A stretch of DNA of 63,625 nucleotides, filler included, from Sluysia triapertura (lineage: Eukaryota): NCBI GenBank assembly GCA_046118255.1. It is 5 parts of 5 records of this genome, joined end to end, with 100 filler letters (N's around TTAATTAATTAA, not from the genome) between each part and the next. Parts side by side here need not be neighbours in the genome. Positions count along the whole stretch, not along the records: positions 23,456 to 36,363 come from JBJNIA010073277.1; 4 more parts are not named here. One strand, 5' to 3'. Positions 5,818-63,625 of this stretch are shown here, in pieces (position 1 is the stretch's first letter; the number at the start of each line of letters is the position of its first letter). The position numbers were made by a program, and so were the translations under genes. The notes beneath the pieces were generated by a model. The model was given only the letters and a program-made list of their open reading frames with translations. It did not search any database and was not told the DNA's origin.

Positions 5818-6399
5818 TTAAAAGTGTACATTTTCACGGTCTAGGAAAGTTAATTAATTAATTTTCGTTTTTCTACGCTTACGGTTAGAAAATTAAAAAC
5901 TTATGCAAATAATCTTGCTTGTTTCTTCCAACTGCTTGATTTGACATCAATGATAAAATTAAATTCTTATTATTAACATAGCTTCAAAATTTCAGTTTTA
6001 TTTATTATCAAATTTTAGTCGCCATATTAATTGCTTAATTTTCGCATTTTTAAACAAAAATTAAAATTTTATTTATTTAATTTTAGTTTTAAACAAACTA
6101 TAATATTTTATTTATTTATTATTTAAAGTTTTATTTATGTAAAAATAATTATATTGAAAAATTATAAAATTTTATTACTAAAAATTTTATTAAAAACTTT
6201 TTTTAATGTTTCGTGTAATATAATAAATATAATGATTTTAATAAATAATTAACAAATAAATATTTTTACAAATAATAATTAATTCTTTACAAATAATAAT
6301 TAAGACACAAAAACTTTTTAAATCAAAGATCATGAACTCAACATCAATCATCATAGAATCATTTTCTGTTTACTAGTTGTGTTAATTATATTTTTAAGT

Positions 6400-7560
6400 A
6401 TTCCATTTTATACTTTTTCATCATCCAATCATTCTTGATTTAAAATCAAACATTCTCACACACAAATAATTTCAACATGGTACGATATGTCAAACTTTAT
6501 TAGGTACATGTGGTGGCCAACCTATTAATTTTAACAAATTTTATTAAAATTTTTTTTCTCAAAAATTATAAAACCATGTCACCTTCAAAATATAGATCAC
6601 ACACCTTTTAACCCATTTAAAACTAATACAACATAACGAAAACCATATTTTCAACAACATATAACAATCTTATAAAATTTGCCACAACTATTTTCATATC
6701 TTATTTCTCTTCCTAAACAGTAAAATAAATATTCACTCCTCAAAATATTTCTAACAGATAAACTCGTAGCAAAGAATAACATCAATTCACATTAAGCCAT
6801 CCATTGAGAATATTTATTCCACACCACACAACACCCAAATCACAAATACGTTTTAAACCATCAAAGTACATTAAAACTTCATTTGAAATATTTTATTTTT
6901 ACATTCTTGCATCTTAAACATTTCAATTCCGACCTCATTCAAATTCATTCATCTCAAACATTTAACATTCTCACAGTTACCTCTTTCACTTTTACTTAAA
7001 AACATTAATCAACACCTAAAAAGCATTATAAACATTACTTCATGTAAAACATTTAAGTGTATGCTAACTATTAAAATTAATTCACCTTAAGTACAAAAAT
7101 AAAAATAAAAGTAACATTAAAACGCATTGCGCAGAGTTTTACGTCTTGGAACCTTTTCAGTAGAGATATTATTAATTTAAGAATAGTGAGTTATGTGCCA
7201 TCAGCTACACAAAACATTTATTTTAATCTAAATATTAAGTTTTAAGTTTTCATTCTTTAGTAATTCAGCTTTGATATGTCCAGAAATATCAAGATAAACA
7301 AAGGAAGTTCTTGTTATCAAAGAAAGATAAGAGGTTATTATTAATATTATTATTAATATTTTTACTATTAAATTAATTTAAAATCATGTATTACAAAATC
7401 GACTATGTTATCCCCATCATCAGCAGTGACATTTTGTTTTACATTTACAATTTTGTGTCACTGAATATGATGGTAGTCGTCACAGTTGATTCTAGTCATC
7501 ACTAAATCAATTAAATGCTGTAAAAATAAATAACCCATTACATTGATAGTCTAACCAAAT
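6400..7560 (+). mobile_element. Penelope-like retroelement remnant followed by hairpin module (copy 1)
   Basis: C/A-skewed decayed coding strand; across frameshifts reads (F)LDLK.KHSHTQIISTWY..RY and CGGQP, similar to PLE RT C-terminus/thumb. Inverted repeat at 7414-7472. Confidence 0.45.
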
Positions 7561-7566
7561 CACTTT

Positions 7567-8122
7567 TGTTAGGTTGCCATCACAACCCTACAAAATAACT
7601 CTAAGACAACATAATAGCACTTTAAAATTAATTAAAATCACGAAACAATCATTTAAAATTATAAAAATATTAGAAAATCAATTAAAATTAATCAAAAAAA
7701 GTTTATGTTCCAAAAAATAAATTTATTTTCAAAAAAAGAAAATAAAATTTCGAAAATAGAAAATAAGCTTCTAAAAATAGATTAGAATCTTCTAGAATAT
7801 TCTGGAATATTTAGAACATTCCATCGATTTTCATTGGATGATGACTGGTATATAAACCAGCATCATACGATGAAAATCTCCATATTTTAACAATCATTAT
7901 TGTGCAACAAATTCATTTGTAATAGAAGTAGCCATAATTGTTACTCATTTGCAACAAAGTCGTCTATTAATTCGCCATTTTTATAAGCAGCAATTTGGAT
8001 TCAGCAGCTATTTAGGAATTTAAACACTACACGATATTTTTTGGATTTATACAATTTACATGAAAGAAGTAATTTGTTTGATTTAAGTTTTATATTAATC
8101 TCATTTTAAAATCCACGTAACA
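7567..8122 (+). mobile_element. Possible solo LTR
   Basis: TGTTA...TAACA ends, repeated TTCTAGAA/TTCTGGAA motifs upstream of TATATAAA (7849). No matching TSD seen. Confidence 0.3.
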
Positions 8123-13199: not shown

Positions 13200-13730
13200 C
13201 TTATATATAATGAATTTTTCATTTATTCATAACTACTAACATAAATGTTGCTTTCAATTTCATATAGAAGTGAAAAAATTACAATTAATAATTAATCAAA
13301 CAGCAAGACTAATTTTCCAAGTGAGAAGAAGATCTCATATAACACGTTATATTAGTTTTCAGTAAAAGTAAGAGTAGAATTCACAATCATGACAATAATT
13401 TACAAATTATTACATTACGAAAGTCCTGAATATTTCTTAGAAATAATAAAAAAATTTGGAAACCAAGATGAGTATTTCATTGAGACATAATAATCTATAC
13501 AGAATTCACAGTGATAATAAGCTAGGTGATAAGTTTATACAGTGTTTGTTTCAAAAATATACAACCTGTTACCAGAGAATGTCAAATTAATGAAAAATTA
13601 TGAAATATTTAAGAAAAAGGTAAATTTCTTCCTGTTTCAGAAATATTACAGTGAATGATTTATTTTCAGCGCTTTTGAGTACTTATTTTGCAGTATACAT
13701 GAGCACAATATAAATTAATATATTATATGT
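13200..13730 (+). mobile_element. L2-clade LINE, 5'-truncated 3' end
   Basis: LQLIINQTARLIFQVRRRSHIT...MTIIYKLLHYESPEYFLE...LRHNNLYRI...YNLLPENVKLMKNYEIFKKKV, the typical L2 ORF2 C-terminus. Related copies at 460-507, 46195-46360, 56450-56870 and 62390-62700. Confidence 0.8.
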
Positions 13731-14489
13731 TCGTTTCTTATTCTATATTGGTTAAAGTGATTATGTTTGTTAACTAATTGGAAAATGATTTTTTAGTTTT
13801 TGATTTGTACTATTTTTATTTTATTTGCATATCTATGGAAATTAAGGTATTTGAATGGAGTTTTATTTTAAGTAGTCAAAGTCGATTTTAATAGTCAATT
13901 TAATAGAAAAGTGAGTCGAATGTCACTACAGAATATTTTATGATCTCGGCCACTTAATCTGACAACTAACCATACAAACATGATTTATACAAGAACTTTA
14001 TATATAATATTATATGTTACATACTCATGATAGTTCCATGGTTAGAATGGTTATGCCTTTGACGGTTCTATGTTTATCGCAATTTTCGTACTCTTATATA
14101 CAAAATCTTTTAGCGACAACCATCCGAAGAAACCTCCATTTACAAATAATACCAACCAAATCTTGTAATGATATTGTTGCTAAACATTATTAAATATAGC
14201 TAAATAATAATGGAAAATCTTCAATATATAACTTCAAAATCTTCAACTTATATATTTAAGACGATGATTATATTTTAAGGATAATAAACAATTGCCTTCA
14301 TATCCTTAATATATAATCACAAATCTTAAATGCCTATAAAAGCCACAATATTAGTAAAAATGTATATTAAATGTATACAAATTTAATAATATTAAAAACT
14401 TAAACGGCAAGAAAAGGAAATAACAAATAAATACATTTATTAAAAATCGTTATCAAAATCCGAAAATGATAAAAATTCATCATAAAATT

Positions 14490-20615: not shown

Positions 20616-23261
20616 TTTTCATTAAGAATAACACCGGTATTCTTAAGTAAAGAGACCATTTATTATTATTATTTGTTGTATTCTATGTCTTCAATAATAT
20701 CTTTTAATAATTTATCTAATTCAGGTTTAATTTTGTCCCTAATCGAATGTATATTGTCTTGAGTTTTAACAAAATATTTCCACTGATTCATTAACCTAAA
20801 TCTTACAAACATGTTGTCAATAAATTTTCTATTTTTCATATTCAGATATTTTTGAATATTTTACTAGCTTCAACATTCTCACCATAAAATGTATTATCCA
20901 TTTCATCGAAGTTCCCTTAAATGACGCTCATTATACATATTTAACTTCACATTCAACTGTTAAATTCACTTACACAATTTTCACAAATATCAATAATACC
21001 CCAAAAATTTAATTATAGTTCACCAATTCATGTTTAAACAAAATTTAAATAACTAACCTTATCTGTTAGAATAGAAACAATAAGTATGATTCGACATTTA
21101 TTTAATATTTTTTATTTTGGTACAAGAATTACTTTTGGTGTAGTCAATGTACAACGTAGACTCATAAATATTCTATAATTGGACTAATACAGATTATAAT
21201 ATGCATGTTAAATCAATTAATCTCAATTATTAAATTACGCATAATTTGAAATAATCGAAAAAATAATTAATTCTGTTACATATAATTAAAAAATAAAAAT
21301 TATTCGTTGTCCGAGACTTAATGTTAGAAAATGTTAAAACGTTTGAATTCTATATATAATGAAGCAAATGAAAACGGTATTTTCCCTAAGTTATTTTTTC
21401 GTTATAAGATTAAACTAACGAAAAGCGAAAAGTAGTCTTTATCTTAATTAGTTTTTCATTTTGCTAACACTTGAAAGTTTTAGTAACATTCCACAATGTG
21501 TACGAATTCGATTTCAAAAATTCAATTTAAAATAAATGAAATTAATAAATATGGAATAATTGTTATTCTAAATTTGTTTATAATTTTCATAGTTAAAAAT
21601 GATATAATTATTGTCAAGACAAAGACATAAAATGTACCTTAATAATATTTAGAATAATATAAAAAATAATACTTATAAAAATAGAATTTTAATACATCTG
21701 CGTTACAAAAAAATTCTGGCGTTGTTAAAGTATCTGAAGTTACATCGCCGTGTTCAGAAAATAATTCACATGCTAAATTAAATTGATATTTCACAGCAAT
21801 CAGATGGTTAGTTATTTGTCTTCAATATGTTTCTTTAAGGAACTTTATTAATAAACAATTAGGAGCAACACTAAAACGATATGGCGAATGGTTCACAAAC
21901 AATTACTTTAAGCATCATTAAACGGTCTGTATATTTATCATTGAAACATTTTCCAAAATGCATGCTATTGTCCATTTCAACTACTAAATCAAACACATCT
22001 TTTAGCATTGCACTTCTTGGCCTGAAATGATTATTTTTCATCAAAAATAAAAATATTTACACAGACATAAAAGCGCTATCTTTTTTATCTTTATTTAATT
22101 TGAGAATATTTTATTAAATTATTATTATTTATTAGCTATAAATTTAGAATTATGGGATGAAGCAGACACAGGTATATGATGGAGTAAAATAGGAGATTCT
22201 GACAGTTTTAACATTCTTTTAGTGTTTTCATCAGATTCGTATATTTATTGCTAGCAATAAGAGAATTATTTAAAGTTCGTTCTAATTTTTTTCTATTTGC
22301 AGTGCTTTTCATGTCCAGCAGGACTCATGAATTTAAAATACTTTTATATCTCATCTTCTTTTTAAAGCAAAATCTATCAAAACTTGCTTCTATATAATCA
22401 ATATGATTTAGTAAATTTGTTTTTAAACACTTTTTGAAACTTATGCAATCAGTAATCTAACATGCATCAACCAATGAGATATTATGCTTTTATCCGAGTC
22501 AGAAGTTGTCAATGTTGCATCATCACGCAAAACATAAATGACATTCTTAGACCATTTAGCAGACATTGTAGCACCTAATTCTTGAACACTGTAGCTAATG
22601 TTAAACTAATATCATCATTACCACTTCTAAACTCTGTAACATCAACATTAAATTTATTAATACTCATTTTTGTATAAACGCATTGATTGTCATTTTGAGA
22701 TTGAGTTTCAGTATTTCGATTGCTTAATTTATATTACGTGATTTACATCTTCATTATCGACTCTAAAGTTTCATAATTATCTACGTTTAAACACTGATCA
22801 GAATTTTGATTACTAACAATTAGAACAATTACTAACAAAGAATTCAGCACCAGAAGATTCCATAATTGGAATAAAAAATGTAAAATTAATCAATATAGAA
22901 TTTTATTGTCGTATTAAAATTAAATATAGAGAATTTTTAGTAACAAAATTTTGCATTAGCAATGCTGAAATATTTTCTAACATTCAATTTAAAAAAGAAA
23001 TTGTTATAAAAATAAAATTTACAATAATAAAAATAAAATAATCCTGAATAATTTTTCCAATAATATTAAAAATAATTTTTAGAACGGTTATTTTGAAGTA
23101 ATTGCTAGCGATAATAAGAATTGTGGAAACGGTAACTAGAATATGATAAAATGAAAACGTATTGAATATTTCGTGAGTGAGTGAAAGGTTTATAGCGTAA
23201 TAGTGGATGTTTGTTTATGATATAATAAAATTTGTCGGTAATGGTTTGGGCCACCACCACT

Positions 23262-23455: not shown

Positions 23456-23599
23456 ATAATAGCGGTAGTTCATGATAATTATGTGCGATGATTATGTTTG
23501 TTTTTTGAATGAGTTTAGTAGTTTGTTTAATATTCTGTGTATATGTGAAGTGTTTTTATGTAATGAAGTGTGATGAATTCCCTACAACTTATTCAATCC

Positions 23600-24870
23600 T
23601 AAGTGCACTAGCTGGCAACACTTACTGGGTGCTGAATATTGAAAAAAATTGGGTCCTCATCATAATCAACAAAGAGAATAATTTCTACTGCATTGTTGTT
23701 CTCAATACTTCTTTACGTCACCTCTATCTGTTACGTGACGCGGTGGTCAACCTTTCAAAGTTTATAAAAATCCCTTTCATAATATTACAAAATCATATAC
23801 ACCCTCAAAATCTACAATTTATATTCAAGAAATCAATATCAAACTAAACACACATATTGTACATAAAACCACACCCTGTAACATTTTAACATTCTCATAT
23901 ATCTTCTACATTCATCAAAACAATTCATCCGCTAACGTTAATTTATATCCACAGTCTCATAACATATTAACCACAATAACATTCTAAATCACCAAATTAT
24001 CTAAAGTATTTTATCCTTCACTTTAAACAATTCAATCACATTCACATTCGTAATCAATCACCAAATACTTTCAAAATAAATTTAAACACCATAAACCTAC
24101 ATATTGTACTATTTAATCTTAATAATCAAACACCATCATCACACACTTTAACGTCTACATTATTCTAAGTGTTTAGTTAGAATTACCTATATCTTAATAA
24201 CATTTCAGATAAAAGCATTATCCCAGTTAAAATATCAGAATCAATCGTGCAAAGTTACCTAATGCAGCACAAGCACCTGAAATCATCAAAAAATGCTTCA
24301 TCACTACACATCCATAAGGCTGAAAGTTCTTTTCGCTCTTACAACGTACATACGTTGAGAAAGATGAAAAATAAAAGAAAAGATTACGAAAGAACTAAAA
24401 CAATAATTTAAGCTTCATTAATAATAATAATAACATTCATTATCATTATTATTGTCAACATTTGAATTTTAATTAAACTAATATTAGGTTTTAAGCTTCT
24501 ACTTTACACTGGTTTTGACTTTAATATGTTAAGAAAGATAAAGAATCAAAACAAGATTGTGTAAAGAAATTAATTTTCAAGAAGTTTATATATTTTTAGT
24601 AATTAATAATAATTATAATACCTCATCATTATTATTTCAATATAATTAAAATAAAATTTCAATATACGCAGTTCTAATCAAGTGAGTTACTGCCATCATC
24701 AACAGCGACATTTTTGCTTTACAACTGTAATTTTATGTCACTGTTGATGATGGTAATCATCACAGTTGATTTCTATCGTCGCATATGGTTAATAGATTAT
24801 TGATTGTCCAACCAAATCAGTAGTCGGGTTTAAAAATCTAAAAATAATTATGGTTGGACAACCAATAGTG
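23600..24870 (+). mobile_element. Penelope-like remnant with double hairpin (copy 2)
   Basis: RGGQPFKVYK motif (~23740) in a C/A-skewed tract; inverted repeats at 24692-24754 and 24797-24869 homologous to copy 1. Confidence 0.45.
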
Positions 24871-25859
24871 ATAAAAAATTTTACGAAAATTTCATAATAA
24901 TAATTTCACAATTAGTGAAACAAAAAGAAAAAGAAAAATTGAATCCTTTTAAAAATCACAAAATCCTAGGACGACCTTAAAGTTAAAAGTCATAACAACG
25001 ATGACGATCTTAAAGTTAAAAGAAATGATAACGATGATTATAAATATATTAGTTTTAAAGTTAAAATTTATGTTAACAGTGATGATTAATACCAAGACGA
25101 CGGTCACAACTACCCCAACCATGTCGAAGATTATAATGATTATGGTGAACAGGATAAAGACAATGATTATGATGACAACAAAGAGTAATTATATCAAAAG
25201 TTTTCTTAAACAATACAACGATTATGATCACAACTTCACATAATATGCTGACGAAGAAGATTATAAAATCCAACATAACTATGATGATCTCTATAAAACA
25301 ATTCTACAAAACGGATTTTTCTGCCATATTCTGCTGATGATCAAGGATGTTGTCCGATGAATGGCGTAAAGTGCCGATATGCGCACAAGGTAAACGATTC
25401 CGAAATCGACTGTACTACCGCTCATTCCAGAGGATGACATGTAAGTTCCAGAGTATTGAGTCATGGCTAACTACACGTGTTCAAAACAATCTCGTAACTA
25501 AGATTAACAAAGTAGTAATAATGAAAGTAATTAACATCTTTCATTATAATAATAATAATAATAATTATGATTTATTTCCAGGTAACGACAAACGGAATCA
25601 ATCCAACGGCCTTTGCAGAATAAGACATTTAACTATTAACATTTTAGTTTTAAAATTTTGTAGTAGATATTTAAGTGTTTATGATTATTTTTTATGGTGT
25701 CTTAAATCAAAACTTTTGTTTAATTTTTTAATCCTAACAAAATTTAAATTAGAGTTCAACAGATTTCACCGTTTAAATAAATATCTAACAAATTTACATT
25801 TAAGATCAATCCTAAATCTGATTCAAAAACCTAACATAATAATAACATTACCAAACTTC

Positions 25860-27390
25860 AAAAATGTCATGGTTGCATACACTGTTCCTCTAGCGTACCC
25901 TAGTAAGCAGAATTTTGTACATAAGATTATTCCTTACCTGACACAAACTAGTCCTATCGATTGCGGTCCATTTATTTGTAACATTGCTTTGCAATATAAA
26001 CGCAATCCAGACATTATAATGTTTTCCCAACCCTGTATTGATGCCACAAGAGAAATACTCTGTAACGTATATCCCTCGGGACACTTCCTTTGCCCTCTGT
26101 TCAATAAAATCCTATCCGTTGAGAAACTGCCGCGCACTTGGAAATCCTTTACTACTCATCTTTTAATTATACCTAACAGCCCATTACAGTATCCGATGTG
26201 ACATATAGTCTTCACAAAAATCCTTAATGCCCGTCTTCTCTCCTGGGTACATGCCGGCAACCTTCTGATGGTTGCACCGATCATAACCTTTTTGTTACTC
26301 AAATTCATCCATTGGCGCAATCTTAATATCAACACACAAACCCTGTGCAGTCCTCATGCCAGACAACCATGGAACCTTCCCCGATCTGATGAAAAGGGCA
26401 ACAATCTCTTCAAGGGCTTCTTAGGCGTAAAGAATTTCCCTTTAACAATGCCTTCTTCTTTGCGCACAAAAATGGGTTTAGGCCTGACCTCTTCCAACGA
26501 CGACTACATATGCCAGAATATAGTCTGCGCTTTCTGACTTTTAAATAGTTGTAACCTTTCCTTTCATGAAATTGTCCGAGTTGCTATTGGTTGAATATGG
26601 GTAAATCTGATAGGCACACACGACTCCAAACTTGGTGGATCAAAATTCGGCGGTCTTGCCTCAATCTACAGCGTAAATATCGAATTTCTATCTCTTTGCT
26701 TCATTCTGAGGACTAAATTAAGTGCGACATCTTTGATGAAATCCTAAGTCATATTAAATCAGTTTCATAAAGAGAAAGTGGTGAAATATTTCCAATAGAA
26801 GCATTTGGAAATCCCTCAAAATCAAGGGTCATTTTGTGGACTGCCATTTCCTTACAACTAAACAATCAGATTTTGATCGTGAAACGACTGCCCATGTCTT
26901 ATGTCTGTGCCCTCATACTGTTATTGGTCGTACAGTGAGTCATAATAATAAGATGATAATAAGAAAGATTACGGAAGACCCGACATTCAGGTACTAATTC
27001 GACCCAACTCTTTCTATCGATGACTGTAACAAATTTAGGGCGACCAGGTCTCTTAATATTGCTAAGCACTCTGATGTTAGGGAGAAACTCCAATCGGAAC
27101 TTAAATTTCAGGTTTCCCTTGATACCTTTGGAACACTCGATTCGTAGGATCCCGAAAATGACATTCTCTTAAAAAGGTTAAGTTTCCGTAAAGCTGATAT
27201 CATTAAGTTGGCACACTAGTGATCAAGCTGTCATTGGAGCCATCCTTAACATTCTCTCCAGTCCTTTTTATACACACAATCCATCTCTTTTATAAACACG
27301 TACTTTTCTGGGACGTCCTATTTGTAAGCTTTCCCGGATATCTTACCAAGTGATGGTTATTCGAAACTGATTATTCTTATTAAACAATCT
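25860..27390 (+). mobile_element. Internally deleted RLE-type non-LTR retrotransposon (NeSL/R5-like) with Ulp1 protease
   Basis: QTSPIDCGPFIC (C48 catalytic Cys); RT start LFNKILSVEKLPRTWK..PITVSDVT..FTKILNARL, DGCTDHN; thumb GLGL..DDY; CCHC region ETTAHVLCLC..SHN; REL RRPDIQ. Central RT is missing. Confidence 0.8.
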
Positions 27391-39589: not shown

Positions 39590-40480
39590 CAACCGGTTTG
39601 TGTATTGTAGTTAATTGACAGCTTTTTGTCAATCACAAAATTTATATTAAATTTAATTTTGTAGCAACTAGACAGTTGTTTCTATTGGTCAGTTAATTTT
39701 TATTAAAAACAATGTTTCATTTTATGTTTTAGCATTATTATAAAAATTATGTTTAACATCAAACTTTATTATGATGCTTAAAAATTCAAAGATTAAGTTC
39801 CTAATCAACTATTTCATTATGAATTGTAATGATGCTTCAGGAAGAAGGACTGTCAAAATTGATAGTTTTAATAATTAATAATGCCAATGATAACTACGAT
39901 AATGATGATAATAATTAATGAGGATATAATGATTATAGTAATAATAATAGTTTTGTAATAATATAATTAATAATAATAATAAAAATAAAACAAATAATAA
40001 TAATAATAAATAATCCAAAATAAAAATAAAGATAAAAAAGTATACATAAAATTATGTCTTTTTCTTATATATATTTCTTTTATTTCTAAATTTCTTTAAA
40101 ATTTTCTTGAGAAAATGTTTCTTATAACATATTATTTCTTTTCTTAAACTATGAAACAAAGTAAATAAAATTCTTTTAGGCAATGAATAATGTTGAAATA
40201 ATAAAGCTTGAAGTTATTAGAGGAAGAATATATATCATCATAAGAATATAAAAAGAGATTAGTAAAAAAGAGATTAGTAAAATTGGAGATGTTAAGAGAA
40301 ATTCCATTTAGATTATGATTATGTTCTGAAATAAATTTAAATTGTAAAGTTAATTATTTTCGATGTTATTGAGATGATTTTATTGTAAAAGAATTAGTGT
40401 ATTGAAGTGTATTTAAAATTTTGAAAGATAAAGTTGGCCACCACACCTAATTTTCAAAATGTAATATTAAATTAGTATGG
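39590..40480 (-). mobile_element. Penelope-like family copy, reverse orientation
   Basis: GTTGGCCACCACACCTAA (40433-40450) is near reverse complement of TAGGTACATGTGGTGGCCAAC (6501-6521); G/T-skewed tract. Confidence 0.4.
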
Positions 40481-43129: not shown

Positions 43130-43800
43130 ATGCTAATACTTAACATTTTCTATTTGTATTTATTATTTTGTATATTCTTACGATCTAATACTAATTATTT
43201 ATATTTAATTATTATATTTTGTATGTGGTGGCACAATTCATAAAGCGTAATTTTAATATATCATTAGTCTATAATCAATTTAAACTCATAAAATATTCAA
43301 CAGAATCTTTATCACGTTCTTAGATCATCAAATAGTCTTTTCTTTTACATTATTTGAGCTAACTTTATTAAATCTTTTAACATACAGTATTATTCTTTAA
43401 AGTATTCTGTTTCAAATTATTCAATTAAGATATTCGCAATAAATCATACTATACAAAGATCATTTTCAAACTTAATACTACTCATTACCATTCTATCACA
43501 GCTTCAGAACTTTTAAGTATATTAGTACTCCAAAAAACTTAATCGCAAACAGTATTGTTGTTGAAAATATTCTGCCATTGAATGTAATTCTTTATGGTAA
43601 TATCATATAAAATATTTTTTATTCATTTGAAGAAATAACACCAAATAATGATGATAATAATAATATTTATTATTATTAATTATTAATAATAAATCCAGGC
43701 TTAAATTTAATTCAATTGCCAAACCAATAAAATGTGACTTAGCTGCATTAGGTGCCAATTCAAATTTTCATTGGAGCATTTTTGGTTACAATTGTTAAGA
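43130..43800 (+). mobile_element. Penelope-like family copy, very decayed
   Basis: TGTGGTGGCACAA (~43224) followed by the same C/A-skewed tract. Confidence 0.3.
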
Positions 43801-44661: not shown

Positions 44662-47600
44662 CTGAAGTAACACGAGAATTATTCACCCCATTAGAAAATA
44701 AATTCTTACCAAATGAATTCTATAATAAAGCTCTATTGTTGGATCGTATGCTATGACTATAATATAGTCAGTTTTCTCTATTGCAGAACATATTTTCACA
44801 ATGTATTATATTTCTATATAATTTATTCAGTTATATTAGTATTTGTTTTTGTCCAATTAATATTCATTTTTTGTGGATTTTTCGTGTTTTATCGACATCA
44901 TGATTGTGTAAAGTAAGTGCAATAAAATTTTATTTAACATGTTTTTATTATTAATTATTTTCAACAATATTTATAATTGTAGGAATAGGTTTCTTACAAA
45001 CTCTATAAAGTTTATTATAGATTTTGTGTCAAAAAATTATGCTATTTATACGGTATTTTCATCACAATATGTTTTATTATTATTAATTTCCATTTAATAT
45101 AAAATTTACTACCTAATCAATTCAATTCTATAATAGTTAATATGTATCTGATTGTACAGTTAATAATTAATAATAATTAATTAATTACAATAATAATTTT
45201 TATTTTACTAAGGTAACACAAATAACAAGTTTGAAGCCTATTCTAAATGCAACAAATGTTAGTTTTAAATGGTTGTATAATATTTAAAATATATGTTTTA
45301 ATTGGGTTTCTAGGATGCTAACAATAACATAATAAAGAGTATTAAAGCAAAAGTCAGTGTTAAAAATTAATGAAAATTGTACAAATATGTTAAATATATT
45401 TATTGTATAAAATTTAAAATAATAATACAAAAGTATCACATTATATTTTTGCTTAAATAAATTGATTATGGAAAACGATTGTTAGTGTTATTCTATAATT
45501 ATTATTATCATAATAATTATCATTTTATTAAGGTAACACAAATTACAAGTATGAGGCCTATTCTAAATGCAACAAATGTTAGTTTATAATGTCTTTGTAT
45601 TTGTAATAAAAAATTAATTTTATTTATTTAATGCTTAACCCTGTAACTTCGTCAATAGCGGACTAAGCGAAATTCTTGTAAGCTACAGCTGTCTCCGGGA
45701 CGGGTGTTGCTTATCATCTATGTTATGAATATCTGATTTCATTTAGGCACGCAAAACATGGAAACTCATAATTTATTACTATTTGGTCTAATTATAAAGA
45801 ATTATTTCCATTTTATACCTAAAATAAGTATTGAGACAATTTCAAATTTGAAGAAGTTCAACTTATGGAAGGCAAAAATATGAGTTATAGAAATATACAT
45901 CTAAATAAGTCGAATTTCTATTCCCTAAGAAAACTATTAGAGAAACTATTACATTTTATTACTGTAAGGTTAAAATGAAACATTTTAAGCAAAACTCCAA
46001 TTGAAATGTTAAATTTGGTAAGCGAAATTTTCATTTTACACTAAAAAGACAGAGAAACAACTTCAAATTGCAAGAAGATGAACTTACAGTTGGATAATGT
46101 ATTTCGTTCTAAATGCAATAAGAACGTGTTTTAAAATATTATTCTTGCTAGAATATTGTTCTAAAACAAAATAAATAATTTTTATTTAATAATAATATAT
46201 TAATTTATATTACGCTAATATCTATGCTATATCACTCAAAAGCACTTAAGGTAAATCATTCACCATAATATTTCTGAAACAGAAAGAACTTTGTCTTTTT
46301 CTTAAATATTTCATAATTTTCCAGCAATTTTACATTCTCTGGTAACTGGTTGTATATTTGAAGATTTTTAATTTTAATTTTTGCTTTTTTTGCGTATTAA
46401 ATATGTACCTTGACAATTAAATATTGCTTGACAATTTTTAAATATTAAAGTGTTACAAAAATAAATGTAATATCAAACTTTAACTTGGAAATTGTTTAAT
46501 CCATTTTGAAATAAGGTTATCTTGATAACAAAAGTTGAAAAATAATGATAATTTATATCAATAATAAAAGAGTTTAATAATTTATCAAAACAAACTATGA
46601 CGCACACAATGATAATTAACATTTTTTCCAAGAAACAATTTATAATTTATCTATCATTGTAAAAGAAACTAATATTTGAATTATTGAAAGTTTTTCTATT
46701 ACTACCGGAATCACAATCAATAATTGAATTATACCGAAATATATATTTTAACATTTTTTATTTTTAATTATTATTAAATTTGCATGACTTTCTATGATCG
46801 ATTTCATGGACCGTGAAATAATACTTTAGAAATAATCTTAGGGTTGATTTTCTATCACTAAATTAAAAATGCGACAGAATAGATAGACTTACAGACAATT
46901 TCTCATTATAAAACTTTTTTGAAATGATTTCAATTCATGTTGATAAGAAATGATTAAAAATAAAATTGTACATAACAAATAAGAATTAGTAATAGCTGAC
47001 AAAATCAGTTATAAGTCATATTTAAACGTAAAATATGAAACTTTTAAATAAATATTTTCTAGTTTTTACATTCTTTGTAGAACAAAAATATGTGTAACAT
47101 AATGAGCCCATTCAAATCAAATGATATCTTCAGATATATTTTCTAAATTGTCGTCACACATTGAAAAATCTGGGATGCTACGTAGTTTCCCTTTCTTGGT
47201 AAATTTGTAAAGTTAGTTTTAGCGAATGATGATATGTTTTGTTTAATCTCAAGTCTCATTTCCTAGTGGGAATTTTTAATTGTTCTAAGGTTTATTTTTT
47301 ATAGTTCGATTACTGGTAAAACTTTACAACTTTTTATTATAGTGCAAAATTCTAAGATGCATAGCTTTATACTGTCTCGTATAAACTTGAAACTTTACAC
47401 TTATAATTATTACAAACTTTAATTTTATATCTCTTTAATTATTCGTTAATTACAAATTATTTAACACTTATTTTTTGTAACTCTTTTATTAAATATTGAT
47501 CAAATGATTATTTAATTCGTCTACTTTTTACCAGTCTATTACTTAATTAAAGTTAAATTCTCTTTGTAACTTTATCTTAATTATATGATTTATTCAATAT

Positions 47601-52849: not shown

Positions 52850-54890
52850 ACAGAACGTGGAGCTTACCATACTTATTAATTAGTGGGAAGAGGTATTGAC
52901 AAACGCATGATCAGTAAGGTAGAATGAAAAAACCTCGAATTCGATCACCCAAATTTAAGCCAAAGCAGCATTTTGTATGGCATTCAATCCCATCCAATCC
53001 CAAATCTGGAAATCCGTCTATTTTAACAGGCCAGGTACAAAAATCCGGCATCAAACATTTGGCTTCTCGTCTTCCAATACTCTCCCGCTCGAAGATCTAT
53101 TGCTAAAAATATTCCGCGTATTGTTGGTAGACGCATTGATGGAACGGTCGTCTGTTCAAAATTATTTACTTCTTCAGAATTACCCAGAACAAAATCCAAT
53201 GTGACTCTACCCAAACTGGCCCCAATACGATATGCAATCAGGATTTCAAAACGCATAAATAATACTCCGCATGCCTGGCCCAGCGGCAGAGGGGCCAGAA
53301 GACATGTAAATAATACCCCGCTTAGTGGGCCCTACAGCGGGGATGCCCAAAAAAAATTCACAATCAATCCACTGTGGTTTCTGACACCACCTCTAGGAAG
53401 ATTAATGTTAGAAGTTGTTTATTGTGCCATAACCCCCAAAAATCGTTTAAATCCTTTTTAAATAAGTCCATTGAAATGCAGGGATATTGCTGCATTGACG
53501 CTTCTTCAAATTCACCCTTCATTTGTTACTTTCTGATCGTCTTATCTATGAAGTTAGGAATTTTCTCAAATATAACATCTTCTTCTCTGATTCCCATCAT
53601 TTCTCAAACATTACCTTTCCTCCCTCCTTCTGTAATCATTTTAGAACGATCTTAGGAAGACTATTTACCTGTCTATATCTACCTCTGTAACTTCCGAAAA
53701 ATTTATTTTAACCTCTTCATTTTTCTTAGCCGTATTAACAATGAACTCCAAACCTTTTATGGTACACCCAGCATCTCTTACCTTCATCTTAAAACTTAGC
53801 GATCCTCAGAGCTCAACCATAAAACACCATGGTCCCAAAATTAATACCTAAAAAGGCAACCTATACTCCTAACCCAGTCTCTTCATCTTCACCTGTCTTT
53901 AATAACCATGTCCCAATCTCTTAGAGCTAAGTATTTTAATAACAATCTATCTTCTGCTGTTATACTCAACTCTAAGCCCTCTCCTGTGGACTTAGGTCTT
54001 CATGCAGAAAATGAGAGTGTTATTTCTGGCCCACAAACCTCAATGTCCTTTAACGCCAATTTACCTTCTCAGTACACCAGTGACACTACAATCCATCCTG
54101 CTATTATACATGATTCTAAGTCCTCTTATATAGCTCAGATCTTCATGCAGATCTTCATCCACAACCCTCACGGTCCAGTGACGAAAGCTTCCTGGATGGG
54201 ATCGAATTCCTCTTTGATGATTCGTACCTGCCAATAACTATTGATTCTCACACCTTCAAAGCTTGAAGAAGACAAAACCCAAGGTACACATCTCTCTGTT
54301 TCCAGGTGATATCTGCCATCCCAACTATCTTTTTACTTCTGACGATATCATCGACTTTGTCACAAGCCTCAACATACCTCAGGACCATCGCTTCATTTCT
54401 GGCTTTGCCACTGAATCTTTCTTCGATGGTTCTCCTGCTCATAACGCCTTTATTGACATTAATAGTACAGTTACATCGACAAAACCCTTCTTCGTCACCA
54501 ACATGAATAAACAATGGTTCCTAGTTGTTGCCGGTATACATACTAGACATGCTGAAATCTTTGATCCTCTTACTGCTGACCTAGATACATCTAGATGTTC
54601 CAAGACGCAGAAAATCTTATCAACATTCTTGCTATTATATAATCATCCTTATTCTATTATCCCTTCTCGGCCACACACGTTACAAACTAACTCCTTTGGC
54701 TGTGGACCTTTAGTGTGCGGATTCATCCAAAGACTATTTCAACAAAAACATTGTACCTGCCTTAGTGCCTGTGACCCAACTCCTGCTCCTACAAACCCTA
54801 CTCTAGCCAGTGACAACAAAGAAGATAAATGACATATTTGGTTTTGAAATCACTAATTTACTCTGCCTTCGGGCGAAGATTTTAAAATTT
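52850..54890 (+). mobile_element. NeSL/R5-like element remnant: 5' region and Ulp1 (C48) protease, RT absent
   Basis: ORF 54263-54832 has NKQWFLVV...EIFDPL...QTNSFGCGPLVC; upstream CLLC Zn-finger-like and Ser/Pro-rich ORF pieces; higher GC than flanks; followed by (ATT)n. Confidence 0.65.
54263..54832 (+). CDS. Ulp1/SENP-like cysteine protease domain (transposon-borne)
   Basis: C48 motifs (H/Q)W.LVV, FDPL, Q.N..xCG; the position before W is Gln rather than catalytic His. Confidence 0.7.
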   Translation: MKKTKPKVHISLFPGDICHPNYLFTSDDIIDFVTSLNIPQDHRFISGFATESFFDGSPAHNAFIDINSTVTSTKPFFVTNMNKQWFLVVAGIHTRHAEIFDPLTADLDTSRCSKTQKILSTFLLLYNHPYSIIPSRPHTLQTNSFGCGPLVCGFIQRLFQQKHCTCLSACDPTPAPTNPTLASDNKEDK

Positions 54891-55658: not shown

Positions 55659-58286
55659 CTCAACGAATGAACTGCTAGTGTCAAAGTTTCCGGATTTAGC
55701 ATCAATGGTATTTTGAGTGTCTGAAATCGCATGTTCATTTCCATCCCCATCATTGTTGTTGATCACGTCATCCTCGTCTGAGGACTCATGAACTTTGTTT
55801 CTGTTGGGTCGCAAATCATCTGGACTAACTATCAAGCCAGTCAGAATAAGACAGCCACCAGAAAACAGCAAAGCAGCCGGTAGCAAGAAGCCATATTCAT
55901 ATCCGAAGTTAACTACTTGGCCTGTTAGTAGATCTCCAAGTATATTACCCACTGAAGCACAACTGCTCCAAATACCTAAACAATGTCATCAACAGCTCTT
56001 CAAATTACGACTTCAAATAATAATAATAATATAATGCAGGGTGTTTTTCGATCAATTAAATAATCTTTGCAGTCAATTAAATAAATTATGTAAAGAAAAT
56101 AATTTAAATTAAAATCAACTTAGAATATAAAACTAAATCAACAGATTTATTGCATAATAACATCAGTTCATTTTCCGGCAAAAATATCCATCGTGTTCAT
56201 CAGTAATTTCAATAGTACAACCAGGATTTGTGGAGATAAAATTTACATTCCAAATTAAAGAACAGATATTAACAAGTGTCTGAAACTTTTGGTATGGTTT
56301 ATCAACATTAAACTGACTGACTTAGTAGAATATCCTTCAAATGTTTATTGGATTATTCTTTCCCTATGTCATCGACTAAAACAGTAATTTTTCTTATAGT
56401 CGGTGTAACAATGGTGGAAGATGATGCAGACATTTCATGTAAAGGTAATTGCAGACTCAGTACATTGGTTGCCAATAAAAGCAAGAATATAATTCAAAAT
56501 CATGACAATAATTTACAAATGCTTACTTTACGGAAGTCCTGAATATCTTTTAGAAGTATTAAAAATTTGGAAACCAAGATGAATATTATTTCATTGAGAC
56601 AATAATAATAATCTAAACAGAATCCACAGTGATAATAAGAGCTAAGTGATAGGTTGTATATAGTTTATGTTTCAAAAATATACAACCAGTACTACCAGAG
56701 AATGTCAAATTATTGGAAGACTATGAAATATTTAAGAAAAAGACAAAGTTGTTTTTGTTTCAGAAATATTATTATAGTAAATGATTTATTTTAAGCACTT
56801 TTGAGTACTTACTTTACAGTAGATATAAGCGAAATATAAATTAATATATTATGATTATTATTATTATTATAAATAATGATTCTTGATTGTCAGAACATGA
56901 AATTTATAACACCATTGTTTCTAAAAGTTTCAACATTTTCCGTGTATCCAGATCTAAAATAATTAGTAAAAACTATGGTCAAATGAAAAACAGATGAATT
57001 GGACGAATTTCCAAAATTCAGCAATTTGTGTAATCGTTTGAGAATAACGAAGAATCGAAACATTTTCAGATACATTTGACAATTATGAAGTCCTATCTGA
57101 ACGATTTGTTGAAGGAAAAGATTTATTCAAATGAATAACGTTTAACTGCGAAAATTCTGGATTTTATGAATTAGGAACAAAGAATCACACGGACTTTATT
57201 TTGTCAAATCATATTGGATAAGGTCATTAGAAAGAAAGGTATACAAAAGAGCAGCAATTCAAAGTAGGTACTTCGTCGTTTTCAAAATGGCATGTATCAC
57301 ACATGCACCTCATCGAAGTATGCATACATTCCAGTATCGATATCCATCCACTATATAAATATGTAAAAATGATTAAATTATTACTTAGATATTAGTATTA
57401 CACGCTGTAGCTCTCGTTGTTCTCTTCTAATATTGACATTAAAGTGATGGCCAAATTATTAGACTAAAGACATCCATTTTTGTGATAAAATTCAGCTTTT
57501 TTCAAGGATACTATGAAACTATTAATCAAAAGTGTATAAAAACATTGTCACGGAAAATGTAAAGTGTTGGAAAATAACTATTTTCTCCAAAAAAATTTTG
57601 GTGAAAGTAAAATAATAGATAAAAATATTGAGATCCAAAACATACATAAATGTTATTCATGAAGAATGTGATAACACAATTTACTACAAATCAAATATGT
57701 TGTATCAGTACTTTGTTTGCCATCCTTTGTTATACAATAATTTCCTGATCCTTAAAGGCGCATGCTACGGATGAGCATGGACACAAGGCTTTGATCTCGT
57801 CATCGCGATGCCATACTTTTATCAGGGTTTCAGTAAGTTCTATACTGGTGGTTCGTTTATGGGTAGAAACTCTCCTTTTGACAATATTCCACAGATTTTC
57901 TATGGGATTCATATATGAAGAGTTTCCACACCAGGGTAACAAATATTAAGAAAACCAATGCATATTATAGATGAATATTTTCTTAAACTCATAATGTAAA
58001 ATCACAATAGGAAAAAGCGCAGTCAATTACAAATACAAATAAAACAATCATATCGAACCCATGATTAAACCACGATTGCTTCCAAACCAGTTGCCCATAA
58101 TTGCCACTGCCGCTGGCCATCCTGTACTCTGACAGAGACCATTCAAAATATAAATTATTGTGTAAAATGCGATGTTGTACAGATGCAGCCACTCAGAAAC
58201 GACTCCGAAAAAGAAAATAACAATGGCTGAACTGCACATGCCTGCACCAAGGACCACTCGCGGTGAGAATTGATCACTTAGATAAC
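55659..58286 (-). CDS. SLC37A3: Sugar-phosphate exchanger 3 (MFS), two internal exons: 58286-58059 and 55975-55659
   Basis: GYLSDQFSPRVVLGAGMCSSA...NGLCQSTGWPAAVAIMGNWFG..RGLIM|GIWSSCASVGNILG...GYEYGFL...GLIVSPDD closely follows SLC37A3; junction phases are compatible. Confidence 0.88.
56450..56870 (+). mobile_element. L2 LINE 3' end in SLC37A3 intron
   Basis: HWLPIKARI.FKIMTIIYK, homologous to 13360-13730; ends in (ATT)n. Confidence 0.8.
57438..57945 (-). mobile_element. Tc1-like transposon 3' remnant in SLC37A3 intron
   Basis: LPWCGNSSYMNPIENLWNIVKRRV (WPxxSPDLNPIENLW); TIR-like TAAAGTGATGGCCAAATTATTAGA at 57438. Confidence 0.8.
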
Positions 58287-59799: not shown

Positions 59800-61010
59800 C
59801 TTGTTTTTCTTAAAATGAAACTTACACCTTACACTGATTATATCTGAGATTTATATTTTTTTTCTGTATAAACTTTAATGTCTTCACAACAAAGGATAGA
59901 TCCGATATTTTAATAATTTTAGTGGGGTCAACACAATACCTTAAGAATTTTATTTCATTAATACATAACAAAATCACTCTTCAGAATATTTCATAATTGC
60001 TATTACATTTAAACACTCTAAACATAAAATTTCACAGCATCTAGATCAGACACAACATCGAAAATCATCAAATATTAATTGAAACATTTCAAATTTAATT
60101 CAACATATCGCACATTCCATAACATTTTACCTATTTTTTTATCAAAACCTATTTCATACTTTACTTCCTTCAAGATCCTGTAAAACCAATTTCGTACCTC
60201 AAAACATTTTTTAATTCTCAAATTGTCAACATCCGAATCATAATTACATTTAAAACCATCAATCTACATTTCAAAATTCATTTTAAAGCATTTTAATTTA
60301 CAATTTTAAAACACCAAAATTACTTCTACATTCAAAACCATTAACGTATATTAATTTTCATTCAAAACATTTTGATCCACAATTTCATAACACCAAAATT
60401 ACATTATACATCTCAAAATCAATCCAAAATCCTTAACACTCAATCTCTAATATCGCAAAAATCATTAAATTAACACTTTGAAATCAATTTAGTCATTGTA
60501 ATCAAATTGTTACTTCTTTAACATCTTTAATTAAGTATTATTTTATTTAAACATTCTCTCATCAACTCCTTTTTACACAATACATATCTTGGTAATCAGC
60601 GAACAAGATCTCCTTCATAAAAATCTTAATAGAATTGTATTTTTACATAAGAAATCATTTTTTAGGAATTTTAATATGTTTAAAAAACAATATAAGATTT
60701 ACAATAAGAAAGATCTTGTTAAAGAAAACGAAAAAGACAAAATTCATGTGTTAAAATTTGTACTTTTATGATAATTACTTAATTTCAAATATTATTATTT
60801 TCATCATTTTTTAGTACTAGGATTATTTTAATTCAATTGACGACAAAATTTAATTTATTACCTGTCATCGATAGACAGATTTACATTTCATCTCTGCTGT
60901 CTACCGATGATAGACATTGAATTAGTTTACCTCTGACCTGATTGGATGTCCAATCAATACCATTTCATCATCTTAATTTATCTGCTGAGATTGGACATCC
61001 AATGAACATA
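59800..61010 (+). mobile_element. Penelope-like remnant with double hairpin (copy 3)
   Basis: AGTGGGGTCAACAC (~59921), C/A-skewed tract, inverted repeats at 60862-60913 and 60941-61003. Confidence 0.4.
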
Positions 61011-62389
61011 CAATAGTAAAAATTAAAAATTATACAAAAATTTGACAACTAGTAAAAAATAAAAAAAGAACTGTTTAAAAAACAAAAAGTTTGCGGTAAT
61101 TTTATGAGATAATTAATTCCTAGACAATTTTATTTTATAATGTTCAATTTTAGTATTATGATTATTAGTAATTCTGGTTATGTACATTATTATTATGATC
61201 TTTTTATTCCGACAATGAACATTGATGAAACAATTACTTATCCATGCCGCAAGTCATTTAAATATGTTGTTGGGAATATAGTACTTTACTCTAATGAAAA
61301 GGATAATTTAAAATTTGATTATATTATTTATTTTAGTAGCGATAAGGAAATAAAAGTTTATAAATTTAATGATGAACTCAAAGACGGATTTGATATATTG
61401 AAACATTTTAAAACCCAGAATAATTACTCATTTAATATAAAATTTGTTAAGTCAAAGCTAATTACAATTGATAATTTAGTTATATGTTGTATGCTTCATC
61501 AATTACTCAAGTTAGTATCTAAAGTTACAGACTTTTTGAAAATCGAAATCAATGAAATTTAGTAGTACATGTACAAATCTTAGTACAAAAAGTTTGAATG
61601 AACCATTTTATACAGCTCATTCTAAACAATTTAATTTAAATCATGCTGTTTCGTCGAATTATAAATTGCCGAAGAAAAATAAAATTTCAGAAATCTTTAT
61701 TAATATATGTTTAGTTTTTAGTTTGTGCTGATATGATAGACTTAGATTCGTATATCATGACAAATCAAGTAGCATTATTAAAGAGAGGCATTCGAAATGA
61801 AAGATTAACAGCTCACTATTCTGAGTTTATTTACGATCATAAACATTTGTTTGTACGGAACAACGCAATCTAGAGAATGCAGCAAATATGGCAAGGATTG
61901 TGTACACTATCACACAATTAGTGAATGTCGAAATATTCCCGGGTATTCAGCTTGCTTCATTGATCACTGTCAAAGGATAAAATATGTTATGACGATGTTT
62001 CGCGTAATAACTTCTCTAATGTTTCAGGAAAGTCTATGGTGAAGAACAAAACGATAAATATTATAAATTTTTATTTGAATTTTTACAACTTGAATTGTTT
62101 TTATGTTTTATATCTTTTTAGAATCGATTTCGAATATATCCAGTGGCATTTCCAGAGGACAACAAAGCAAATGTTAAATATAGTTTTAGATTCCGCACAA
62201 ATGTTGATAATAAATAGCTTTAGCATTTATTCTTACTCTTCATCTATTGTAAAACATTTATTTAAACTTTATTTTAAAATTTCTTAAGTCATACAATTTA
62301 AAAGATATTATTCGATTTTCATTAACTAGTTTTGTTAAATGTAAATTATTTTCTTTAACGACGAATTTCATTTAATAAACTTAAAACAT

Positions 62390-62700
62390 AATGATAATAA
62401 CATAATGATAATAAAAACATAATGATAATGATAATATATTAATTTATACTGCGCTCATATCTACTACAAAGTAAGAACTCCGACGCTTTTAAAATAAATC
62501 ATTCACTATAATATTTCTGAAACAGAAAGAACTTTGCCTTTTTCTTAAATATTTCATAATCTTCCACTAATTTGACATTCTCTGGTAACTGGTTGCGTAT
62601 TTTTGAGGCATAGAGTATAAAACCTATCAATGTGGATTCTGTATAGATTATTATTATGTCTCAATGAAATATTCATCTTGGTTTCCAATTTTTTATTTCT
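62390..62700 (-). mobile_element. L2 LINE 3' end
   Basis: Reverse complement of 13450-13720, with a simple-repeat tail. Confidence 0.8.
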
Positions 62701-63600
62701 AAACTAGTTGATATCGAAATATTACATAAAATGAAGCCTTATCCGTACAACAAACATCTTTATTCTACTCATTTAATGAATATAATTATGAACGGAAGAT
62801 TTTATGATACAGGAAGCTATTTTAACGAAGTCAAGATTAGTGACATCAAAAATGTAGAATTTGTTAAAGAAGTAAATTCTATTACTCGACATATTTATAT
62901 TTCATCCAACATAATATCAAATAATCATCAGAAATGCGAATTTTATAAAAACCACAACAGAACCGCACTATGTTTGTTTTGTTAATACTCACAACGTACC
63001 AAAATTATGTTATCATTCTATCACTGACGACAATTTTAATATCAACTTGGATCGAATTAACAAGTTTTTAGTTTCATTACAAATTAATTCAATCAATTCA
63101 AATCCTACAATCAATAATAGACATCCAGCTATACTGACTGACGATTCTGAATTAAAAGATGAAAACAAATGTTGTTTTGATCATTTAATTCAGAAATATA
63201 TACACACACCGATAATAAACCAAGTAAATTATAAATACTACTTACAAATTTATTATTACCTCAAAGTATGAAGTACAAATACTACTTATTATTAAGTTAT
63301 AAATTAAATTATTATTTGTGAAAATTATCTATTGATGAATAATTATTATTATTAATGAATTATTGATATTAATTTTACTGAATAGTTGAAGAATTATTGT
63401 AGAATTCCTTAATATTAAATTAAAAAATTAGTGATAATTATAAAATAGAATTTATAGTATAAGTAAATTAATATTGGAATTACTGAAATAAATACTATTG
63501 GAATTTATTATTGCAAATAGTATAGAAGTGTTGGGATAAAAAGCCTAAAAAAAGTGCCAAGTAGTATAATTGAATATAATAAAAATGAAATTGTTAGACG

Positions 63601-63625
63601 GGGCTGATAGCTCAGTGGTAGAGCA
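63601..63625 (+). tRNA. 5' end of a tRNA (possibly Cys) or tRNA-derived SINE, cut by window end
   Basis: GGGCTGA-TA-GCTC-AGTGGTA-GAGC-A: 7-nt acceptor strand, perfect D-arm and A-box. Anticodon not visible. Confidence 0.7.

Follow-up and report, generated by a model that had tools for sequence, protein, structure and literature searches.

A dispersed cassette of Sluysia triapertura carries two hairpins, possibly microRNA-like, ahead of differing gene fragments

Structure and distribution of the cassette

A cassette of 2.1-2.5 kb is dispersed in the genome of Sluysia triapertura and combines a sharp common start, a 0.9-kb leader, two hairpins, an acceptor-like AG, a cargo that differs between copies yet occupies one place, and a CCCH gene (Table 1). 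The hairpins are real. We tentatively read them as element-borne, microRNA-like hairpins in the spliced-off leader of a gene-capturing, non-autonomous element. All comparisons among copies 1, 2 and 3 are confined to the window, which is the whole stretch of 63,625 nt analysed here. It consists of AT-rich animal DNA (per-kb GC mostly 16-31%) with exons of immunoglobulin-domain proteins and of a sugar-phosphate exchanger, whose best named relatives are 55-61% identical. An exact look-up of six window proteins returned none of them (0/6).

In run X1, the region 23460-26500 was covered in 30 of 30 bins. Its summed contig depth, which is not a copy number and at most a rough sign, ranged from 79 to 412,619 in comparison to a reference depth of 22-25 for two identical contigs. 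The cassette is therefore multi-copy.

Table 1 Features of the cassette copies, with positions along the window
Feature	Position	Strand	Remarks
Copy 1, start motif	23739-23751	+	translates RGGQP; sharp boundary
Copy 1, G-poor non-coding leader	23752-24675	+	G 7%; ends in ATT-rich linker
Copy 1, hairpin 1	24676-24771	+	upper stem 24691-24755 with 21 pairs, plus basal stem; 36/37 nt overall
Copy 1, CNNC	24777-24780	+	17 nt past predicted 3' cut; cut from geometry
Copy 1, hairpin 2	24796-24869	+	19 pairs, 36-nt loop
Copy 1, A-rich spacer	24870-24969	+	ends in acceptor-like WTCCTAG 24963-24969
Copy 1, cargo: broken frame, acidic, with internal repeats	24970-25310	+	begins right behind AG, without ATG
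Copy 1, Unkempt-type CCCH finger, broken	25327-25401	+	PF25427 E 3.4e-5, 24.1 bits, below the cut-off of 31.1
Copy 1, intron-like GT-AG segment of 55 nt, then short last exon and AT-rich tail	25527-25848	+	
Copy 2, start motif and G-poor leader	6509-7396	+	
Copy 2, hairpin 1	7397-7491	+	3x3 internal loop
Copy 2, hairpin 2, lone 5' arm	7542-7557	+	
Copy 3, variant start motif and G-poor leader	59920-60849	+	
Copy 3, hairpin 1	60850-60925	+	upper stem 60862-60913, 17 pairs; 29/29 nt overall
Copy 3, hairpin 2	60941-61003	+	15 perfect pairs; arms nearly self-palindromic, ATTGG and CCAAT
Copy 3, A-rich spacer	61004-61123	+	ends in acceptor-like WTCCTAG 61117-61123
Copy 3, cargo: TRAPPC4 (synbindin), about residues 1-130 of 219	61140-61562	+	open 140-codon frame, uninterrupted
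Copy 3, Unkempt-type CCCH finger	61845-61934	+	PF25427 E 0.0063, below cut-off; spacing kept
Copy 3, intron-like segment, last exon, AT-rich tail	62066-62420	+	acceptor ending at 62121; non-canonical donor
Short fourth copy, start motif followed by leader-like tract; no hairpins	39960-40445	-	

Folding and recurrence of the hairpins

The arms of hairpin 1 in copy 1 lie at 24692-24711 and 24735-24754 and enclose a loop of 23 nt, while those of hairpin 2 lie at 24796-24814 and 24851-24869 around a loop of 36 nt; all four arms named in the original prediction were found in place. The folding z-scores of the modules were -7.49 in copy 1 (24676-24880), -5.51 in copy 3 (60850-61020) and -5.05 in copy 2 (7400-7600), with none of 200 dinucleotide shuffles as good in each case. 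Among 12,520 scanned windows of 75 nt, the lowest energy was that of hairpin 1 in copy 1. The predicted recurrence of the module was located at 7397-7491 and 60850-61003, and the second hairpin of copy 2 is incomplete as had been proposed: only its 5' arm is left, unfolded (z -0.35). A G-U-rich 3' arm considered for this hairpin does not fold and was rejected.

A covariance model built from the three copies of hairpin 1 recovered these and no fourth, the next independent match having an E value of 1.0. Scans with hairpin-copy patterns gave no match in metagenome contigs and none in viral contigs. Between copies 2 and 1, hairpin 1 is 79% identical (shuffled 55%) and the leader 65% (shuffled 62%); hairpin 1 is the better kept of the two. 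As a rough sign, the hairpin-1 bin had a summed depth of 3837 in run X1, against 379 and 572 in the bins on either side.

In copy 3, the loop of hairpin 1 (60879-60896) and that of hairpin 2 (60956-60988) share CATTTCATC and TCTG, and the arms are unrelated. This likeness hints at a possible common unit for the two hairpins. Another hairpin behind C/A-rich DNA, at 14264-14322 (+), has 20 pairs and a 17-nt loop (z -6.8) and did not match the hairpin-1 covariance model.

An origin of the hairpins as Helentron or HINE ends, or as independent miniature inverted-repeat transposons, is highly unlikely. The subterminal repeats of mite HINEs are described as 12-15-nt palindromes in inverted orientation (PMC4067079) and resemble the arms of copy 3; these palindromic inverted arms, a microsatellite and a high copy number are what the cassette has in common with HINE/DINE-1 non-autonomous Helentrons. 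Its arms, however, stand only 18-36 nt apart and internal to the unit, with no far-end partner: at three mismatches or fewer, the patterns of hairpin 2 and of the long hairpin 1 found partners elsewhere in the window only in the hairpin copies. Independent transposons also fail to account for hairpin 1, which occurs behind a homologous leader, in the same context, in three of three cases and nowhere alone.

The leader and the reverse-transcriptase prediction

The leader tracts of copies 1-3 contain 6-7% G, in agreement with the C/A skew described originally, and their mutual homology is weak (z 3.1-7.6 against local shuffles; copy 1 to copies 2 and 3, z 6.1 and 3.1). The short fourth copy, in which no hairpin was found, resembles copy 3 (z 5.7), but not copies 1 or 2. 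Upstream of the start motif, 280 nt were unrelated in 15 of 15 pairs. A strongly G-poor stretch of 200 nt followed six of 13 loose matches to the start motif, compared with a background of 1.6% (p 3e-8, for a motif pattern that was picked after the copies had been seen).

Further starts of the TGTGGTGG type followed by G-poor DNA were observed at 23255 (-), 12025 (-) and 43224 (+), two of them beside (ATA)n runs. They lack detectable homology over their length, with the tract at 43224 giving one short pair with copy 3 (z 3.6), and are therefore not counted as copies. The leader of copy 3 contains an internal duplication of about 81 nt (60209-60421, 74% alike).

The tract had been proposed to be a decayed reverse-transcriptase thumb with a GGQP motif, placing the hairpins at the 3' end of an endonuclease-less, Penelope-like element. 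Such a thumb is not borne out by the leaders. Their stop counts were at chance against dinucleotide shuffles (z 0.5, 0.0 and -0.1 in copies 1-3), as were their longest open frames, matched in length by 14-42% of the shuffles, and, for the most part, their codon periodicity. A shortage of stops seen against single-base shuffles vanished against dinucleotide shuffles in copies 1-3; in the short fourth copy the stops stayed low (z -3.0). Pfam gave no match in nine of nine + strand leader frames, and no reverse-transcriptase or Penelope match in 10 frames and 18 read-through frames. A word search with the RGGQP frame among longer proteins yielded 0 of 11 candidates, the Atlas no usable match for a leader piece, tblastn no match between copies, and phmmer with one leader frame no match among 1.84 billion representative proteins and none in PDB. 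GIY-YIG was matched in neither the leader nor the downstream frames; a 5'-truncated Naiad would lack this nuclease anyway. No Rfam family, hammerheads included, reached the gathering score in the window, and one loose core-like string, found on searching six strands, lies far from the hairpins.

GGQP can be read in copies 1 and 2, but not in copy 3, and is better seen as the translation of a DNA motif at the sharp start of the cassette than as a motif of the enzyme. The hairpins do not mark the end of the family either, given that the homology between copies 1 and 3 runs about 1-1.4 kb further. Since no coding trace and no reverse-transcriptase match were found and the hairpins lie upstream of the cargo and CCCH genes, the Penelope-like reading is not supported by the refuting grounds named with the original prediction itself, and a very old reverse-transcriptase relic in the leader is unlikely. 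The broader proposal of the original prediction, that the hairpins form a structured cis-element or a precursor of small RNAs within a dispersed and probably mobile repeat, stands apart from this assignment and is retained.

A Penelope-like relationship might take two forms, with the hairpins at the 3' end behind a thumb or with a non-autonomous unit, read on the - strand, that was moved in trans by a Penelope or Naiad enzyme and has its 3' end at the sharp motif; we regard both as very improbable. Penelope elements are described as able to move intron-containing host genes in trans (PMC3846280), and Naiads as lacking the C-terminal nuclease and hammerheads and as preferring microsatellites (PMC8557442). 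The cassette resembles Penelope-like elements, including Naiad, Athena and host genes moved between pseudo-LTRs, in its retained intron and nearby microsatellites and, as in Naiad, in the missing hammerhead; shorter motif-bearing tracts of the window abut (ATT)n runs, and the mid-stem mismatches of the hairpins become G-U pairs on the - strand. Unlike in these elements, no reverse transcriptase, GIY-YIG or pseudo-LTR tandem was recognised in it, and its hairpins are internal and upstream of genes. Stops are at chance on both strands, only one of the short tracts is demonstrably homologous, and the cargo is sense to the + strand, which likewise argues against this relationship.

Cargo and CCCH gene

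The A-rich spacers of copies 1 and 3 are homologous (z 3.2) and end in the same acceptor-like motif. WTCCTAG occurs 11 times on both strands of the window, with two of the 11 preceding cargos and one ending at a host exon edge (5841-5847). A GT 28 nt upstream of the acceptor in copy 3 allows for a short cis intron. Flatworm spliced leaders are described as removing the outron at an unpaired acceptor, with the Macrostomum leader ending in ATG (PMC8629364), and we infer that the AG of the cassette could be used by a trans-spliced leader.

In copies 1 and 3 the cargo begins 100-136 nt behind hairpin 2, and the 350-420 nt that follow the spacer differ between them (z -0.5). The cargo of copy 1 shows 3-periodicity. 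The frame of copy 3 matched the TRAPPC4 chains 7b6d_D (E 9.5e-8) and 2j3t_D (E 7.3e-7) in PDB, with query residues 3-130 aligned to chain residues 3-126, and an Atlas Sybindin cluster (0.92); Pfam gave no match and a word search 0 of 7 candidates. It corresponds to the N-terminal 130 residues of TRAPPC4, but is truncated and strongly diverged, and no poly(A) or A tract was found behind it. A frame open over 140 codons has a chance of about 1e-6, and the surroundings are broken. The TRAPPC4 piece is host-derived.

The CCCH fingers of both copies share the spacing of Unkempt fingers (PF25427) and a weak match to their profile, from which they differ as a single broken finger that scores below the cut-off. 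At the DNA level, the CCCH regions of copies 1 and 3 are not significantly similar (z 1.3), while the last exon and tail are homologous (25529-25848 aligned with 62066-62420, z 3.9). Downstream of the lone hairpin 2 arm in copy 2, no cargo or CCCH finger was recognised.

The constant position of the cargo bears on a second reading, in which the hairpins are a copying signal of a mobile cassette, i.e. a pause, template-jump or packaging site of a reverse transcriptase. On this view the enzyme would switch from the cassette RNA to a host mRNA, reverse-transcribe it as far as the 5' end and return to the cassette immediately past the hairpins, and the position of the cargo would thereby be fixed. 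We consider this possible, if rather doubtful. It accords with a cargo that differs yet keeps its place, with a sharp start between unrelated flanks, and with a TRAPPC4 piece that keeps its own start and lacks the 3' part and poly(A), like the LTR-mediated retrocopies described in PMC5131818. The pri-microRNA-like geometry, however, would be left unexplained, only one capture was identified in the window, and a reverse transcriptase, paired LTR or target-site duplication was not found there.

Paired changes in the hairpin arms

Between copies 1 and 3, the 5' arms differ at 8 of 30 positions and the 3' arms at 7 of 30. All seven changes of the 3' arms face a change in the 5' arm, six of the 30 pairs are compensatory, and one extra pair is inserted on both arms. 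The coincidence of 5' and 3' changes has a p value of about 4e-6, calculated for a single pair of sequences with the pairing drawn up by hand. Copies 1 and 2 have no compensatory pair (0/20), with copy 2 showing decay only; the basis for covariation is three copies. The claim that the arms change in concert thus holds for copies 1 and 3 and fails for copies 1 and 2, and the divergence of the loops ascribed to them is only partial, as TTTACA is kept in all three hairpin-1 loops. Paired change may also arise without function, through the template-switch correction of quasi-palindromes described in PMC3820800.

The strand of the hairpins is favoured neither way by the folding energies, which are at most 1.5 kcal/mol apart between + and - in the five intact hairpins, and the G-U signs point both ways: a stem-base G-U pair is present on the + strand at one same position in copies 1 and 3, and three mid-stem mismatches are A-C on the + and G-U on the - strand.

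These observations may also be viewed in terms of a promoter block that was copied as DNA ahead of a CCCH gene family. Its palindromes would be bound by proteins or kept by correction, and retrocopies landing behind it would be expressed and kept for a while. The missing strand preference fits such a block, as do the arms of copy 3, which are nearly self-palindromic (14/16 for hairpin 2) and hold two ATTGG and two CCAAT, the intron-like segment kept in both CCCH genes, and the open frame of TRAPPC4 amid broken surroundings. We nevertheless judge it to be on the unlikely side. The arms of hairpin 1 differ yet their pairing is kept, which a sequence-specific binding site would not need; copy 1 has one CCAAT only, the hairpins in copies 1 and 3 have no TATA box nearby, and an ordinary segmental duplication would not give a sharp common start.

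MicroRNA-like features of hairpin 1

The preferred reading as microRNA-like hairpins draws on the folding, paired changes and conservation described above and on the geometry of hairpin 1. Together with a basal stem, chosen by folding the + strand, it measures 36/37 nt in copies 1 and 2 and 29/29 nt in copy 3, with loops of 18-23 nt in this comparison of stem lengths. For Microprocessor substrates, a stem optimum of about 35 bp and the position of a CNNC motif are described (PMC7174388). The sole CNNC within 30 nt past the predicted cut lies at 17, 17 and 16 nt in copies 1, 2 and 3, an agreement that does not amount to three independent tests because the copies are relatives. Its second letter differs in each copy; the background is 6.5%, and on the - strand the motif was found in one of three copies. 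The basal UG is absent in all three copies (TA, AA and TT at -14/-13) and the apical UGU is absent from the loop start in two, being near it only in copy 2. Processing benefits from both motifs, but does not depend on them.

Hairpin 2 is limited to 15-19 pairs and lacks a basal stem. No Rfam family scored above threshold for the hairpins (best 22.7 bits, cut-offs 47-89); nine of the 11 nearest matches were microRNA precursors, all far below threshold. An 11-letter stretch of hairpin 2 has what we take to be a likeness to mir-219. This candidate was rejected with 16.7 bits in Rfam against a cut-off of 54.5, and copies 2 and 3 do not preserve the likeness.

The two arms changed alike between copies 1 and 3 (5 and 5 of 15 positions), so that these copies have no seed in common. 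The cassette thus resembles clustered animal pri-microRNAs in its two adjacent hairpins, in the stem of about 35 nt in hairpin 1 of two copies, in loops of more than 10 nt and in the CNNC 16-17 nt past the predicted cut. It differs from them in the lack of a basal UG, a shared seed and an Rfam family, in the short hairpin 2, and in that the hairpins are carried by a multi-copy cassette, in front of captured genes. Assistance among neighbouring pri-microRNA hairpins of a cluster is described in PMC12379101.

Mobility and proposed mechanism

Neither a far end of the cassette nor paired or inverted terminal repeats came to light. Target-site duplications were not found either: copy 1 offered no candidate, and copy 3 nothing beyond low-complexity 5-6-mers. 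A search of the 4 kb around copies 1 and 3 gave no repeat of the start, direct or inverted, with fewer than three mismatches. TG is present at four of the six starts listed, with CG in copy 1 and a variant in copy 3. Since a paired repeat, inverted end and target-site duplication are missing, membership of the cassette in the LTR or Penelope families is not shown. Its partial, 3'-truncated host piece without poly(A), in sense orientation at a fixed internal place, and the TG at some of the starts are like those of LTR-mediated retrocopies and large retrotransposon derivatives. Unlike in LTR-type elements, we found neither paired LTRs nor a target-site duplication or remnants of gag/pol, and the cargo is followed by a resident CCCH gene that contains an intron-like segment. 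Giant planarian LTR elements are reported to carry captured domains (PMC6431247); nothing found ties the cassette to them. A retrozyme preprint (10.64898/2026.07.22.740005) concerns hammerhead-bearing repeats, unlike the cassette.

In the mechanism that we propose, the + strand of the cassette would be transcribed and the AG common to copies 1 and 3 used as a cis- or trans-splice acceptor. As the leader would be spliced off at this AG, cutting of the hairpins would spare the cargo message. Hairpin 1, the predicted precursor, would be cut by Drosha and Dicer, and hairpin 2 might act as its weaker clustered neighbour. The small RNAs would be element-borne and fast-changing and would belong to no conserved host family. 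The cassette would be moved in trans by an enzyme absent from the finds in the window. A kept intron needs either unspliced RNA or DNA copying; because of this retained intron, the TG start and the 3'-truncated cargo without poly(A), the mover would most plausibly be an LTR-type reverse transcriptase with integrase acting on unspliced RNA.

The small-RNA reading and the reading as a copying or capture signal can both be true. In its fullest form, the proposal is an undescribed non-autonomous mobile element, spread through an animal genome, that would systematically take up the 5' halves of mRNAs of its host, always at a single site past its two hairpins, express them via its own splice acceptor beside an RNA-binding CCCH finger and make fast-evolving microRNAs from the discarded leader; taken as a whole, we deem this combination improbable.

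Other features of the window

A short G/T-rich stretch at 23460-23600, next to an (ATT)n run and a gap, is a separate, very abundant repeat with summed depths of 412,619 and 25,215 in run X1. A second dispersed repeat family was found at 108-484, 13348-13931, 46234-46359, 56461-56874 and 62412-62625; its pieces are 80-94% alike and lie in both orientations, and one copy adjoins the end of cassette copy 3. Behind copy 1, a broken relic at 25830-27200 (+) has an Ulp1-protease-like motif and a zinc-knuckle/restriction-like nuclease motif. By eye it presumably resembles a NeSL-type LINE; Pfam gives no support for the relic.

At 7785-7876 (+) lies a GAAnnTTC/TTCnnGAA array, which we take to be heat-shock-element-like, with ATTGG and a TATA box, the latter inside a strong hairpin (z -6.8). 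A frame of 195 codons at 54245-54832 (+) gave a weak match to Peptidase_C48 (E 0.014) and stops before an (ATT)n run; the DNA upstream of it is G-poor. A fragment at 57733-57945 (-) weakly matched the DDE_3 transposase (E 0.01), and a tRNA-like sequence, recognised by eye, begins at 63600-63625 (+) and is cut by the window end.

Implications

No description of the cassette was found in searches of open papers; repeat libraries in supplements (e.g. those of PMC8557442 and of planarian genomes) may hold it. Its ingredients are known, namely retrocopy capture by LTR elements, microRNA clusters and intron-retaining elements, and their fixed combination was not found in these searches. Should the hairpins merely be self-perfecting palindromes in a duplicated promoter, the finding would be ordinary. 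If the proposed reading is true, one repeat family would yield both chimeric genes from host fragments and lineage-specific small RNAs, and both gene capture and the birth of microRNAs would be naturally replicated many times within a single genome.
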